Below the pieces are notes generated by a model. The model saw only the letters and a program-made list of their open reading frames with translations, did not search any database and was not told the origin of the DNA. From the IMG/VR virus record IMGVR_UViG_2706794670_000003: DNA of 4,552 bases. One strand, written 5' to 3'. Of the stretch, positions 1 through 4,552 are shown in pieces. Source of the DNA: a virus. Taxonomy: Duplodnaviria > Heunggongvirae > Uroviricota > Caudoviricetes. A program made the translations under genes and the position numbers. Within the stretch, counting starts at the first letter, position 1; each line of letters opens with the position of its first letter.

Positions 1-184
1 CGTTTACAACGTGGGTGCTGGCAATTTCAGAACATCGACGCTTCTTCGCAAAATAAACCAGGGCGATATCAAAGGCGCATGTGACCAGCTACGTCGCTGG
101 ACATATGCTGGCGGTAAGCAATGGAAAGGGCTGATGACCCGTCGTGAGATTGAGCGTGAAGTCTGTTTGTGGGGGCAGCAATGA
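1..184 (+). CDS. R: Phage endolysin (T4-lysozyme-like, GH24 muramidase), C-terminal fragment; 5' end lies outside the window
   Basis: Frame 2 is open from the window edge to TGA at 182-184 and translates ...[60 protein letters not shown]. From memory this matches the C-terminus of P21/DLP12 (RrrD)-type lambdoid lysozymes. Its stop overlaps the Rz start (ATGA at 181-184), the usual lysis-cassette arrangement. Confidence 0.8.
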
Positions 185-645
185 GCAGAGTCACCGCGAT
201 TATCTCCGCTCTGGTTATCTGCATCATCGTCTGCCTGTCATGGGCTGTTAATCATTACCGTGATAACGCCATTACCTACAAAGAGCAGCGCGACAAAAAC
301 GCAAGAGAACTGAAGCTGGCGAACGCAACCATTACTGACATGCAGCAGAGACAGCGTGATGTTAATGCACTCGATGCTAAATACACGAAGGAGTTAGCTG
401 ATGCGAAAGCTGAAAATGAAACTCTGCGCGCTGATGTTGCCGCTGGTCGTCGTCGGTTGCACATCAAAGCAGTCTGTCAGTCAGTGCGTGAAGCCACCAC
501 CGCCTCCGGCGTGGATAATGCAACCAGCCCCCGACTGGCAGACACCGCTGAACGGGATTATTTCACCCTCAGAGAGCGGCTGATGACGATGCAGATGCAA
601 CTGGAAGGGGCACAGGAGTATATCCGCACTCAGTGCATTAAGTAG
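181..645 (+). CDS. Rz: Rz inner-membrane spanin (i-spanin)
   Basis: ATG at 181 gives [61 protein letters not shown]...QCIK, with an N-terminal TM segment followed by a charged coiled-coil-like periplasmic domain. It is near-collinear with lambda Rz as I recall it. The ORF track's GTG at 169 is a possible alternative start; the ATG is preferred by analogy with lambda. G-rich SD-like run at 171-175. Confidence 0.9.
387..393 (+). promoter_or_regulatory. Shine-Dalgarno sequence for Rz1 (GAAGGAG), internal to Rz
   Basis: GAAGGAG lies 7 nt upstream of the Rz1 ATG at 401. Confidence 0.6.
401..583 (+). CDS. Rz1: Rz1 outer-membrane lipoprotein spanin (o-spanin), embedded in the +1 frame of Rz
   Basis: ATG at 401 preceded by GAAGGAG (387-393). 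Product [60 protein letters not shown] has a lipoprotein signal with lipobox LVVVGC and a proline-rich mature part, closely resembling lambda Rz1. It lies entirely inside Rz. Confidence 0.85.
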
Positions 646-687
646 CCTTTTTATCGTGGTAAACATTTCGCAGGGTATGAGGTATTT

Positions 688-989
688 ATGCCATCACTAA
701 TCCCACGTGCCTGCCGTAAGCGTGGATGTGCAGGTACAACCACAGACAGTTCGGGTTACTGCGATAAACATCGCGGTGAAGGCTGGGTGCAGCACCAGCG
801 CGGACTGAGCCGCCACCAGCGTGGCTATGGCTCAAAATGGACGGTGATTCGTGCCCGTATTCTGAAGCGCGATAAAGGTCTGTGTCAGTTGTGTCTGCGT
901 GTCGGTGTGGTGAGCGAGGCGAAAACCGTCGACCACATCATCCCGAAAGCGCATGGCGGAACAGACGCAGACAGCAACCTGCAGAGTCT
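688..989 (+). CDS. HNH endonuclease (visible part only; 3' end runs into the masked block 990-1070)
   Basis: ATG at 688 with GAGG at 679-682. Product MPSLIPRACRKRGCAGTTTDSSGYCDKHRGEGW...CQLCLRVGVVSEAKTVDHIIPKAHGGTDADSNLQS carries a CxxC plus DHIIP..GG..D..NLQ HNH signature, with a Cys-rich N-terminal region. Position immediately upstream of the terminase genes is as in HK97 gp74-type packaging HNH proteins. Confidence 0.8.
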
Positions 990-1070
990 NNNNNNNNNNN
1001 NNNNNNNNNNNNNNNNNNNNNNNNNNNNNNNNNNNNNNNNNNNNNNNNNNNNNNNNNNNNNNNNNNNNNN

Positions 1071-1415
1071 AGCGAGCCCTGAACAAAGATGAACCTGTTT
1101 TTACGCCCATCAAAGGTGTTGAGCCACCAGAGTGGTTCGCTGAAGAAGATCTCCCTCTCGCCACGATCATGTGGCAACTGACAACCAAAGAACTCTGCGG
1201 TCAGGGCCTGCTGTGCGTGACTGACCTGGCGGTACTTGAGCGGTGGTGCGTGGCCTATGAGTTCTGGCGACGTGCCGTGAAAAATATTGCCATACAGGGC
1301 AACACCATCACCGGTGCAATGGGCGGCAGGGTCAAAAATCCGGAGCTGACCGCCAAAAAAGAACAGGAGTCCGAGATGAGCAGCACGGGGGCAATGCTCG
1401 GACTCGACCCCAGCA
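1071..1415 (+). CDS. Terminase small subunit, P27-like family (internal fragment; both ends fall in masked blocks)
   Basis: Frame 2 between the N blocks translates RALNKDEPVFTPIKGVEPPEWFAEEDLPLATIMWQLTTKELCGQGLLCVTDLAVLERWCVAYEFWRRAVKNIAIQGNTITGAMGGRVKNPELTAKKEQESEMSSTGAMLGLDPS with no stops. The pattern resembles P27-family small terminases and sits directly upstream of the large terminase. Confidence 0.7.
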
Positions 1416-1563
1416 NNNNNNNNNNNNNNNNNNNNNNNNNNNNNNNNNNNNNNNNNNNNNNNNNNNNNNNNNNNNNNNNNNNNNNNNNNNNNNNNNNNNN
1501 NNNNNNNNNNNNNNNNNNNNNNNNNNNNNNNNNNNNNNNNNNNNNNNNNNNNNNNNNNNNNNN

Positions 1564-3121
1564 ACGGGCCGCGAAATTTATTCAGCTGTTGCCGCACACC
1601 AAGGGGGAGTGGGCATTCAAACGGATGCCCATCACGCTGGAGCCGTGGCAGCTATTTGTGATCTGCTGTGCGTTTGGCTGGGTCAATAAAGGCACCCGGT
1701 TGCGCCGCTTCCGGGAGGTGTACACCGAAATCCCCCGTAAGAACGGCAAATCAGCAATCTCTGCCGGTGTTGCCCTGTATTGTTTTGCCTGTGATAACGA
1801 GTTTGGCGCGGAAGTGTATTCCGGTGCCACGACAGAGAAACAGGCGTGGGAAGTCTTTCGCCCGGCGCGACTGATGTGTAAACGCACACCCATGCTGACG
1901 GAAGCGTTCGGGATTGAGGTTAACGCCTCAAACATGAACCGTCCGGAGGATGGCGCGCGGTTTGAACCGCTGATCGGCAACCCAGGTGATGGTTCATCAC
2001 CCCACTGTGCCGTGGTTGATGAATATCACGAGCATGCCACCGATGCGCTTTATACCACAATGCTTACCGGGATGGGGGCGCGACGTCAGCCACTGATGTG
2101 GGCCATCACCACCGCCGGGTACAACATTGAGGGGCCGTGCTACGACAAGCGGCGGGAAGTCATCGAGATGCTCAACGGCTCGGTGCCTAACGATGAACTG
2201 TTCGGGATCATCTATACCGTTGATGAAGGTGACGACTGGACCGGCCCGCAGGTGCTGGAAAAAGCCAATCCAAATATTGGCGTGTCGGTTTATCGCGAAT
2301 TTTTGTTAAGTCAGCAGCAGCGTGCGAAAAATAACGCCCGTCTGGCAAACGTCTTTAAAACAAAACACCTCAATATCTGGGTGTCGGCGCGTTCGGCGTA
2401 TTTCAACTTGGTGAGCTGGCAGAGCTGCGAGGATAAATCACTGACCCTTGAGCAGTTCGAGGGGCAGCCGTGCATTCTGGCCTTTGACCTGGCGCGTAAG
2501 CTGGATATGAACAGCATGGCGCGACTTTATACCCGCGAGATTGACGGTAAAACGCATTACTACAGTGTGGCCCCGCGTTTCTGGGTACCGTATGACACGG
2601 TGTACAGCGTCGAGAAAAATGAAGATCGACGGACAGCCGAACGCTTTCAGAAATGGGTGGAAATGGGCGTTCTGACCGTTACCGATGGTGCGGAGGTGGA
2701 TTATCGCTACATCCTCGAGGAGGCCAAAGCGGCGAACAAAATCAGCCCGGTCAGTGAGTCACCCATCGACCCCTTCGGGGCGACCGGGTTGTCACATGAC
2801 CTTGCTGATGAAGACCTGAATCCCGTCACTATCGTCCAGAACTTCACCAATATGTCCGATCCGATGAAAGAGCTGGAAGCAGCGATTGAATCGGGACGTT
2901 TTCATCATGACGGCAATCCCATCATGACCTGGTGTATCGGCAACGTGGTCGGCAAAAACATGCCGGGTAACGATGATGTGGTGAAACCCGTCAAAGAGCA
3001 GGCGGAAAACAAAATCGATGGTGCAGTTGCGCTGATTATGGCGGTTGGCAGAGCCATGCTGTACGAGAAAGAAGACACGCTGTCTGACCACATTGAGTCC
3101 TACGGGATCCGCTCGCTTTAA
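1564..3121 (+). CDS. Terminase large subunit (Terminase_1/HK97-like); N-terminus hidden in masked block 1416-1563
   Basis: Frame 2 is open from the mask to TAA at 3119-3121 (about 519 visible codons). P-loop-like RKNGKS at 1736-1753; Walker-B-like VVDEYHEH at 2012-2035; C-terminal nuclease-domain signatures [11 protein letters not shown] and [15 protein letters not shown]. Gene order TerS-TerL-portal. Confidence 0.9.
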
Positions 3122-3132
3122 CTGAGGTAATT

Positions 3133-3315
3133 ATGATCATGCTGATTCTCGCGCCTCTGGTGGGCGTGCTGGGTGCGCTTTTGCTGGCGTATGGTGCCTG
3201 GCTGATTTATCCCCCGGCGGGTTTTGTTGTTGCCGGGGCGCTGTGCCTGTTCTGGTCGTGGCTGGTGGCGCGATATCTCGACCGTACACGGCAGTCTGTC
3301 GGCGGAGGTAAATAG
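3133..3315 (+). CDS. Small hypothetical membrane protein (60 aa, two predicted TM helices)
   Basis: ATG at 3133 with GAGG at 3123-3126, 11 nt after the TerL stop. Product [60 protein letters not shown] has two hydrophobic stretches separated by PPAG and a basic C-tail. Its TAG stop (3313-3315) overlaps the GTG start of the portal reading frame. No family recognised. Confidence 0.5.
3304..3308 (+). promoter_or_regulatory. Shine-Dalgarno sequence (GGAGG) for the frame-3 portal start at GTG 3315
   Basis: GGAGG followed by a 6-nt spacer and GTG at 3315. A frame-3 stop (TAA 3309-3311) sits immediately upstream, so GTG 3315 is the first possible start of that frame. Confidence 0.55.
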
Positions 3316-4471
3316 TGTTCTTTTCGGGATTATTTCAACGAAAAAGCGATGTGCCGGTGACCACGCCAGCAGAACTGCTGATGCTATCGGGCTGTCATAC
3401 GACACCTATACCGGAAAGCGGATCAGTAGCCAGCGGGCCATGCGCCTGACGGCGGTCTATTCTTGCGTCAGGGTGCTGGCAGAGTCTGTTGGTATGCTGC
3501 CCTGCAGTCTCTACAAAATCAGCGGTACCCTGAAAACACGGGCGGTGGATGAACGACTGCATAAGTTGGTTTCGGCAAAACCTAATGGCTACATGACACC
3601 GCAGGAATTCTGGGAGCTGGTTATTGTCTGCCTGTGTCTACGGGGGAATTTTTACGCCTACAAGGTAAAGGCACTGGGAGAAGTGGTGGAGCTTCTTCCG
3701 ATAGATCCGGGCTGTGTGGAACCGAAGCTGAACAGCCAGTGGCAGCCGGTTTATCAGGTGACGTTTCCGGATGGTTCCGTGGATGTGTTGACCCAGAATG
3801 AAATCTGGCATGTGCGCACCCTGACGCTGGATGGACTTGTCGGGCTGAATCCCATTGCGTATGCGCGTGAGGCCATTTCACTGGCAGCGGCAACCGAGGA
3901 GCACGGTGCCAGGTTGTTTAGTAATGGTGCGGTGACATCCGGTGTGTTGCGTACGGAACAAAAGCTCACGCCGGATGCTTACGAGCGTCTGAAGAAAGAT
4001 TTTGAGGAGTGTCACACGGGGCTTGGCAATGCTCACCGCCCGATGATTCTGGAAATGGGGCTGGACTGGAAGTCGATGGCGCTGAACGCCGAGGACAGTC
4101 AGTTCCTGGAAACCCGCAAGTTTCAGCTGGAAGAAATCTGTCGTCTGTTCCGGGTGCCGTTGCACATGGTGCAGAACACCGATCGCGCCACCTTCAACAA
4201 TATCGAAGAGCTGGGGCTGGGATTTATCAACTATTCACTGGTGCCGTATCTGACCCGCATCGAACAGCGGATCAACACCGGACTGGTACGAAAAAGTAAG
4301 CAGGGCGTTTATTACGCCAAATTTAACGCCGGGGCGTTACTGCGCGGGGATATGAAGTCCCGTTTTGAAGCCTACGCCACCGGGATCAACTGGGGAATTT
4401 ACTCTTCCAATGACTGCCGCGACCTGGAAGATATGAATCCGCGTCCCGGTGGTGTAATGCCGATCAGTTAA
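3315..4471 (+). CDS. Phage portal protein, HK97 family, with an apparent frameshift near 3415-3425 (possible pseudogene or sequencing error)
   Basis: Frame 2 from about 3420 to TAA at 4469-4471 translates ...ISSQRAMRLTAVYSCVRVLAESVGMLPCSLYKISGTLKTRAVDERLHKLVSAKPNGYMTPQEFWELV...GINWGIYSSNDCRDLEDMNPRPGGVMPIS, which looks portal-like and follows TerL. The best translation start is GTG at 3315 in frame 3, with GGAGG at 3304-3308 and a 6-nt spacer; it gives [36 protein letters not shown]... before hitting TGA at 3447-3449. The frame-2 ORF start at 3224 in the track overlaps the upstream gene with an implausible Cys/Trp/Arg-rich peptide. Confidence 0.8.
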
Positions 4472-4503
4472 GGATCAGTTGACCGATCCAGTGGCTGTGT
4501 AAG

Positions 4504-4538
4504 AATCCGGAAACGCTCACTTGTTTCCGGATTTTTTT
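4504..4538 (+). terminator. Rho-independent (intrinsic) terminator
   Basis: Perfect 11-bp inverted repeat AATCCGGAAAC (4504-4514) / GTTTCCGGATT (4523-4533) with an 8-nt loop GCTCACTT, running into a T7 run at 4532-4538. Located 33 nt after the portal stop. Confidence 0.8.
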
Positions 4539-4552
4539 ATGCACATTGGACA

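Follow-up and report, generated by a model that had tools for sequence, protein, structure and literature searches.

The gene ymfR (b1150) of Escherichia coli K-12 belongs to the prophage e14. Literature searches found no functional study of this gene or of any small membrane protein encoded between terminase and portal genes; ymfR is mentioned in gene lists, as a neutral site for integration, and in one transcriptome table, where its induction accompanies that of the other e14 genes. Here we describe a 60-codon open reading frame (ORF) in a 4,552-nucleotide stretch of the Caudoviricetes record IMGVR_UViG_2706794670_000003. The whole of this stretch, called the window below, is a piece of a P27/ST64B-like enterobacterial prophage, and the ORF lies in it between the genes for the large terminase subunit (TerL) and an HK97-family portal protein. 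On sequence grounds the ORF is the prophage gene ymfR (E. coli K-12 e14; phrog_502), which is already known and named and whose product is functionally uncharacterised. Genes near-identical to it are annotated as membrane proteins in phages phiP27 (L37), ST64B (Sb3), SfI, SfII and 118970_sal3, the label in SfI and SfII being 'integral membrane protein'. An initial annotation of the window had presented the ORF as an unusual insertion in this element. It is instead a named gene, and in about 60 loci from enterobacteria, Halomonas, Burkholderia, Ralstonia, Vibrio and environmental viruses a related hairpin ORF immediately precedes an HK97-family portal gene.

The gene family itself is ordinary and already annotated. 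Its strict association with the portal gene and its conservation pattern nevertheless make ymfR a reasonable small experimental target: a tiny membrane protein is kept before the portal, and selected mainly in its predicted periplasmic half, in phages of diverse Proteobacteria. Knowing its role, which might lie in membrane-linked head assembly, in lysis or entry control, or in counter-defence, would complete the picture of a gene module that is among the best studied in virology.

Identity of the ORF

The ORF product matches the phrog_502 profile ('membrane protein') at E=2.8e-28, with residues 1-55 aligned to profile positions 3-57 of 58. E. coli RefSeq matches at this position are annotated 'ymfR: protein YmfR', and the window protein is 88-97% identical to the E. 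coli copies. The copy at the e14 chromosomal position, which lies beside truncated TerL and portal genes, is 97% identical at the protein level; it has Q53 and S54 where the window copy has R53 and Q54, and nothing essential differs. The window gene and the YmfR/phrog_502 members have the same size (60 amino acids), the same residue signature and ribosome-binding site, and the same TAGTG overlap with the portal gene.

Other resources gave little for the protein. Scans against Pfam, NCBIfam and PADLOC returned sub-threshold hydrophobic noise only, with no match in Pfam to DUF1056, a family to which a small ORF in this slot of lactococcal phages may belong, and a profile search of PDB sequences had no match at E<=1. 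A Foldseek comparison of the AlphaFold2 model with PDB and BFVD gave nothing at E<=0.001; in BFVD no match was better than E=0.1, and uncharacterised phage proteins of 51-59 amino acids headed the results. The caution of the initial annotation, that function could not be read from the sequence alone, agrees with this lack of Pfam, NCBIfam, PDB and defence-system matches.

Some database labels of the family deserve comment. In phage lambda, gene W lies between A and B. The lambda gpW protein is similar in size to the ymfR product and is encoded in the same slot between the large terminase and portal genes, and records ON470584, ON470603, ON470580 and PQ793804 label the hairpin gene 'head-tail joining protein W'. 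Identity with gpW was rejected: neither Pfam nor PHROGs gave a gpW match, and the protein is a predicted membrane hairpin while gpW is soluble. The label is wrong and appears to have been assigned by position. The PHROG category 'moron' for the family is not supported by the evidence either.

Three records carry TerL-ymfR-portal DNA that is 95-97% identical to E. coli or Salmonella prophage under unexpected names, namely OR844959.1 ('Enterococcus phage Efm 3-10', 1764 bp), a 'MAG: Bacillota bacterium' and Edwardsiella hoshinae. At least the first two are probably contaminated or mislabelled rather than named for true hosts. In the 77-kb record of Salmonella phage 118970_sal3 (4240-4695), the hairpin gene is annotated from its third codon, an 'attR' and a reverse-strand hypothetical ORF are placed over the portal 5' end, and the portal gene is annotated from an internal start. 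This record probably joins two elements or is misannotated there.

Coding evidence and selection

An open frame of 60 codons is not rare in DNA of 55-59% GC and is not significant by itself; the antisense frames 3118-3405 and 3137-3289 are open too. These points would suit a frame that is open by chance in the intergenic stretch separating TerL from portal, and the ORF is judged a genuine gene because it is conserved, not because its frame is open. A profile-guided scan, limited to one genome per species, produced 30 loci, and the ORF is intact in 29 of them with a length of 54-65 amino acids, the exception being a frameshifted Shigella copy. The ratio of nonsynonymous to synonymous substitutions (dN/dS) in the core is about 0.1-0.3, with a median of 0.20 (Nei-Gojobori, 234 pairs with dS>0.1, synonymous sites being near saturation in these pairs). 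Heterozygosity at codon positions 1, 2 and 3 is 0.32, 0.20 and 0.55, which is the 3>1>2 order of coding DNA, and many homologues have interruptions in the overlapping antisense ORFs. Together with the strong profile match, these comparative data already refute the chance-frame explanation, to which we give next to no weight, and clearly indicate a real gene under purifying selection. The selection is uneven along the protein: the C-terminal tail evolves far faster than the core, with proportions of nonsynonymous differences (pN) of 0.5-0.7 versus 0.1-0.3.

One of the two prophage copies in Shigella flexneri CP182557 (L095, 4001-4216) has a frameshifted ymfR beside TerL and portal genes that look intact.

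Predicted structure and conserved core

AlphaFold2, run on a 25-sequence alignment, predicts helices at residues 2-25 and 27-57 with a mean predicted local distance difference test (pLDDT) score of 75. Hydropathy also gives a two-helix hairpin (1.9-2.7 for the first transmembrane helix, TM1). Both support the initial description of two hydrophobic helices followed by a basic C-terminal tail. Of 222 family members, 94% carry lysine or arginine in their N- or C-terminal flanks, compared with 11% that carry either residue in the turn, a distribution that predicts both termini in the cytoplasm (N-in/C-in) and the turn in the periplasm. The product is thus predicted to be an inner-membrane helical hairpin. 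A dual start of the lambda S type at M1-I2-M3 was considered and rejected, since the second methionine is not conserved.

When 1.8 billion cluster representatives were searched with a profile, 401 relatives emerged at E<=0.001, and nearly all of them have 45-90 amino acids. The conserved core, derived from 138 representatives, is G14-x6-G21-x-W23-x2-Y26-x-P28-A29-G30-x4-G35 followed by R/K47, and the window protein has every residue of this signature. The glycines are nearly invariant (G14 in 133/137, G21 in 136/138, G30 in 123/135 and G35 in 131/131), and Y26 (103/137), P28 (116/137), A29 (109/136) and R/K47 (86/95) are also frequent. The core consists of the turn and the half of each helix next to it, on the side predicted to be periplasmic. 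The two-transmembrane architecture and the length are maintained at 30-40% identity. At the other end of the protein, the last ymfR codons double as the portal ribosome-binding site, which constrains the last residues.

Tandem two-hairpin proteins of 122 amino acids (P0155; L117, 127-495) and 111 amino acids (P0170) are encoded directly upstream of a portal gene. These fusions and the small-residue helix faces suggest oligomerisation, and the hairpin probably forms dimers or higher oligomers.

This pattern bears on what the protein might do. YmfR could be a late membrane effector unrelated to assembly, acting in the membrane or on the predicted periplasmic side; it might, for example, time lysis as an antiholin does, block late DNA entry in the manner of T4 Imm, or neutralise a membrane-bound host defence or another host membrane protein. 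A conservation peak in the turn and adjoining helix halves, next to a variable tail, fits such an effector as well as it fits a role in assembly, and the size and topology resemble those of class II holins and small exclusion proteins. We consider an effector of this kind possible, if on the unlikely side, in the light of the linkage and expression data below.

Linkage to the portal gene

The initial annotation had proposed a synteny survey, and its outcome is that the ORF is conserved at this position. TerL, the hairpin gene and the portal gene follow one another in all 30 genome loci, and the order holds where TerL identity is 36% (Serratia) and portal identity 38% (Halomonadaceae). In every one of the 29 loci with an intact ORF, its stop codon overlaps the portal start as TGATG, TAATG or TAGTG, and a purine-rich equivalent of the portal Shine-Dalgarno sequence lies 5-10 nt before that start. 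In distant relatives the ORF start overlaps the TerL stop as well, in the style of ATGA. Nine distant representatives were looked up; an HK97-family portal gene is directly downstream in all eight with an assessable downstream gene, and in one (L131) the gene upstream of the hairpin is not TerL. A scan with a degenerate DNA version of the core motif gave 22 contigs of environmental viruses, and all 21 that could be assessed have a portal ORF directly downstream.

The hairpin is inherited with the portal. Pairwise hairpin identity correlates more strongly with portal identity (Spearman 0.77) than with TerL identity (0.61). In Serratia microhaemolytica the hairpin stays with the portal across a recombination joint or TerL exchange, and in SfV hairpin and portal switch together at the TerL 3' end.

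The SfV hairpin is an unannotated 53-amino-acid ORF with two transmembrane segments (NC_003444, 2289-2450), assigned to phrog_7105; its ATG overlaps the stop codon of TerL. Position 2392, from which the SfV portal gene is annotated, falls within this ORF in a different frame. That start is probably placed too far upstream, and comparison with related portals favours GTG 2440 (VLLDALFRSKS). Hairpins of the phrog_7105 type, found in SfV-type phages, Ralstonia YO192_1 and Vibrio K330, have 53-67 amino acids and two transmembrane segments and occupy the same slot, with a start that overlaps the TerL stop and a portal gene that directly follows. They cross-match phrog_502 at E=6e-6 to 2e-4. Their core is more divergent than that of phrog_502, with W23 and YPPAG degraded to 'VYLQFGMAPA'. 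Several reference genomes (SfV, SfIV, PY54, vB_E174) lack an annotation of the hairpin gene. The unannotated members include those of Yersinia phage PY54 (2298-2492), Burkholderia vB_E174 (2203-2388) and SfIV/KC814930 (2361-2483); those of YeP1 and Vibrio K330 are annotated as 'hypothetical', and Ralstonia YO192_1 is an unannotated record with one copy.

The hairpin is absent from HK97, Pseudomonas TC7, Serratia Bigdog, Psychrobacter Psymv2 and Bacillus Gamma, in which TerL leads directly to portal. No transmembrane segment, N-terminal or otherwise, occurs in the portals of the four hairpin-less phages checked (HK97, TC7, Bigdog and Gamma). The canonical order of TerL followed by portal, as stated in the initial annotation, accordingly holds for HK97 and some relatives; elsewhere many portals are preceded by a hairpin. 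The hairpin is present in 6 of 12 sampled proteobacterial phages with HK97-family portals and in neither of two phages from Firmicutes. Where it occurs, it invariably occupies this slot and is inherited together with the portal, a distribution by which the hairpin is a frequent but non-universal, accessory member of the portal module.

The TerL|portal junction has other occupants. Streptococcus phage phi-SsuFJSM5_rum has a Phd/Doc toxin-antitoxin pair there (L124, 1753-2378), and Xanthomonas phage CP1 has a 214-amino-acid ORF with a GIY-YIG-like N-terminus (L157, 1696-2340), which is probably a homing endonuclease.

These data cut both ways for a membrane effector. That half of the sampled proteobacterial phages do without the gene, and that the junction accepts other cargo such as Phd/Doc or the probable GIY-YIG gene, would suit a dispensable effector. 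The retention of the pre-portal position across very distant hosts is unlike typical exclusion genes.

The genetic linkage to the portal also suits a minor virion or ejection protein, a hairpin packaged near the portal and released with the DNA that helps to form a conduit in the inner membrane, and an expression level matched to that of the portal would be in keeping with it. Other phages do have minor head or ejection proteins that are portal-adjacent (SPP1 gp7, P22 gp7/16/20). The positive-inside pattern, however, fits insertion from the cytoplasm of the producing cell, a protein of 60 residues that is hydrophobic almost throughout has no evident soluble form in which it could be packaged, and no virion proteomics reporting YmfR was found in the literature. 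We consider a virion role improbable.

Expression and translational coupling

The GAGG preceding the window ymfR is identical in phiP27 and ST64B and is kept as GAGG in enterobacterial loci. The spacer between the TerL stop codon (TAA, 3119-3121) and the ymfR start codon is 11 nt long (3122-3132). The ymfR stop codon (TAG, 3313-3315) and the portal start codon (GTG, 3315-3317) have one G in common, and the portal N-terminus reads MFFSGLFQRKS; the portal start annotated in phiP27 is this same GTG. The good ribosome-binding site, the 11-nt spacing and the TAGTG overlap noted initially are thus all present in the sequence. No promoter-like site and no flanking terminator was found in 2800-3700. 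The GC content of ymfR is 0.59, versus 0.53-0.57 in its neighbours, and its T-richness is only that expected for hydrophobic codons.

Given the lack of an own promoter or terminator, together with the 11-nt junction to TerL and the 1-nt junction to portal, ymfR is expressed late with these two genes, as part of the packaging and head operon, and probably at their low level. The earlier view of an ORF embedded in the packaging and head operon and translationally coupled to it is well supported by these features. They also argue against a moron. Superinfection exclusion by a moron expressed from the prophage and a stand-alone toxin are both disfavoured for this reason, for the composition, which does not deviate, and for the strict portal linkage. 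For the effector considered above, in whichever variant, the same features count as evidence against: there is no own promoter, terminator or compositional break, and in distant relatives the gene overlaps both neighbours. Expression between TerL and portal is expected to be low, and holin-type action needs many copies. There is also no match to a holin family or a PADLOC model, and the phages have separate lysis cassettes.

The phage's own holin was a further candidate, and the evidence speaks against it. The lysis genes (lysozyme, Rz, Rz1) lie 2.5 kb upstream of ymfR, with the HNH endonuclease gene and the genes for the small terminase subunit (TerS) and TerL in between; no holin family in Pfam or PHROGs matched at E<=1, and a relative has a separate Phage_holin_3_5 gene. 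Of the holin, exclusion and toxin analogies drawn initially, the likeness in size and topology therefore stands, and an own holin, a prophage-expressed exclusion moron and a stand-alone toxin are argued against.

The overlap invites a different reading, in which only the act of translation matters and the ORF is a spacer whose termination and reinitiation govern portal translation, its peptide being functionless. The universal stop/start overlap and a portal Shine-Dalgarno sequence inside the last codons are what such a spacer would have. It would not account for the strong purifying selection on G14, G21, W23, Y26, P28, A29, G30 and G35, nor for an architecture and length that persist in diverged relatives, and HK97-type phages couple TerL to portal directly without any such ORF. 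A pure spacer is very improbable. Programmed frameshifting or a hairpin-portal fusion was rejected as well: the junction has no conserved slippery site, and no portal-sized protein is among the best 150 family matches, which have 26-122 amino acids except for one repeat protein of 1523 amino acids.

Genomic context and decay of the portal gene

The features of the window are listed in Table 1. The gene order is lysozyme 3' end, Rz/Rz1, HNH endonuclease, P27-family TerS, TerL, the 60-codon ORF and HK97-family portal. Rz and Rz1 form a classic embedded spanin pair. Runs of N at 990-1070 and 1416-1563 hide parts of the HNH, TerS and TerL genes, the second of them masking the N-terminal part of TerL. 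Window positions 1-4452 correspond to about 5.5 kb in matching E. coli prophages, and the window is about 1 kb shorter; either the masks are shortened or genes are missing.

Table 1. Coordinates of features in the 4,552-nucleotide window.
Feature	Position	Strand	Evidence
Lysozyme gene, 3' end	2-184		
Rz	181-645		Pfam Phage_lysis 2.8e-52
Rz1 lipoprotein gene, +1 frame within Rz	401-583		Pfam Rz1 6.4e-20
HNH endonuclease gene	from 688		
TerL gene	1565..3121	+	Pfam TerL_ATPase 6.8e-26, TerL_nuclease 3.2e-33, phrog_9 1e-188
ymfR Shine-Dalgarno sequence GAGG, 5 nt before ATG	3124..3127	+	sequence
ymfR-family coding sequence, ATG at 3133, 60 amino acids + TAG	3133..3315	+	phrog_502, RefSeq ymfR name, dN/dS, codon-position pattern
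Predicted transmembrane helix 1, codons 2-25, small-residue face G11, G14, G21	3136..3207	+	AlphaFold2, hydropathy
Turn Y-P-P-A-G, codons 26-30, predicted periplasmic, most conserved stretch of the family	3208..3222	+	family frequencies
Predicted transmembrane helix 2, codons 31-47 (G35, C38, WSW), ending in R47 anchor	3223..3273	+	AlphaFold2 helix 27-57
Variable basic tail, codons 48-60, predicted cytoplasmic	3274..3312	+	tail pN, alignments
Shine-Dalgarno sequence GGAGG for portal start, inside Gly codons at the ymfR C-terminus	3304..3308	+	sequence
TAGTG overlap of ymfR stop and portal start	3313..3317	+	sequence; annotated likewise in phiP27
Portal gene, 5' fragment (MFFSGLFQRKS...)	3315..3449	+	alignment with phiP27 and ST64B; 44-amino-acid ORF
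Remaining HK97-family portal gene, other frame, 3'-truncated	3389..4454	+	Pfam Phage_portal 2.1e-107
IS4 end interrupting the portal gene	4436..4552	not assigned	junction between 4436 and 4455

The initial reading had not noted the state of the portal gene downstream of ymfR. Compared with phiP27 and ST64B, this gene lacks 1 nt between 3376 and 3377, which ends the GTG frame after 44 codons; portal homology continues in another frame. Homology to E. coli prophage portals stops at about 4454. More than 3000 E. coli genomes contain IS4 copies with 95-96% identity to the IS4 end that follows. The portal gene in the window is a pseudogene, frameshifted and cut by IS4, so in this copy a coupling of ymfR to a working portal gene no longer applies. 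The prophage is a degraded remnant that is decaying like e14, while ymfR stays intact; given a target of 183 nt, this may be chance.

Possible role of YmfR at the inner membrane

We tentatively favour a role in portal synthesis or assembly at the membrane, because the hairpin is linked to the portal in cis and co-inherited with it. YmfR would be a low-copy, late-made membrane factor of the portal and head module. Ribosomes would pass from ymfR into the portal gene, so that portal is made in step, possibly beside the membrane while the hairpin is being inserted. At the inner membrane, YmfR would then help or localise packaging or the assembly of the portal, the procapsid initiator, in the way that gp40 serves the T4 portal. 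A portal-linked assembly role is a serious possibility that falls short of being probable.

Several observations weigh against such a role. The most conserved part of YmfR is the membrane-embedded half with the turn, and the predicted cytoplasmic tail is short and variable; this fits direct binding of a cytoplasmic portal poorly and points to a partner in the membrane or on the predicted periplasmic side. Related portals occur without a hairpin in HK97, TC7, Bigdog, Psymv2 and Gamma, and HK97-type assembly therefore does not need YmfR. Deletion of ymfR in K-12 has no reported phenotype, although e14 is defective. Finally, the order of phage head genes is conserved in any case, and adjacency alone is weak evidence for a functional link.

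A broader proposal is that the YmfR/phrog_502-7105 hairpins are a widespread device by which proteobacterial phages couple the synthesis of portal and the initiation of procapsids to the inner membrane. In its trans variant the hairpin would be a gp40-like membrane nucleation factor; in the cis variant its co-translational insertion would drag the TerL-hairpin-portal mRNA, and so the nascent portal, to the membrane. We regard the broader proposal as doubtful. If it is true, head assembly begins at the membrane in many HK97-type phages, just as in T4.

Comparison with known systems

YmfR can be compared with three kinds of small phage membrane protein. Class II holins and pinholins, such as S21-68 of phage 21, are likewise small and expressed late, with two Gly/Ala-rich transmembrane helices, an N-in/C-in topology and a charged C-terminus. 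YmfR differs from class II holins in being encoded outside the lysis cassette and in having neither a holin profile match nor a conserved dual start. Its TM1 is strongly hydrophobic and not of the signal-anchor-release (SAR) type, and its expression is coupled to that of low-abundance genes.

The exclusion proteins T4 Imm and HK97 gp15 are also small phage-encoded proteins of the inner membrane, and HK97 gp15 lies inside a structural-gene cluster. Genes of this type are expressed early, or from the prophage through signals of their own, whereas ymfR is without such signals. It also differs from exclusion genes in keeping one conserved position across distant host groups.

The third comparison is the one on which the favoured assembly role is modelled. 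The T4 portal initiator assembles on the inner membrane, aided by gp40 and YidC (PMC9958956). Unlike ymfR, T4 gene 40 does not lie next to the portal gene of its phage, and homology between the two proteins is not expected. The likeness is a functional analogy only, in that gp40 is a small phage membrane protein tied to portal and prohead initiation (PMC9958956), as YmfR may be.

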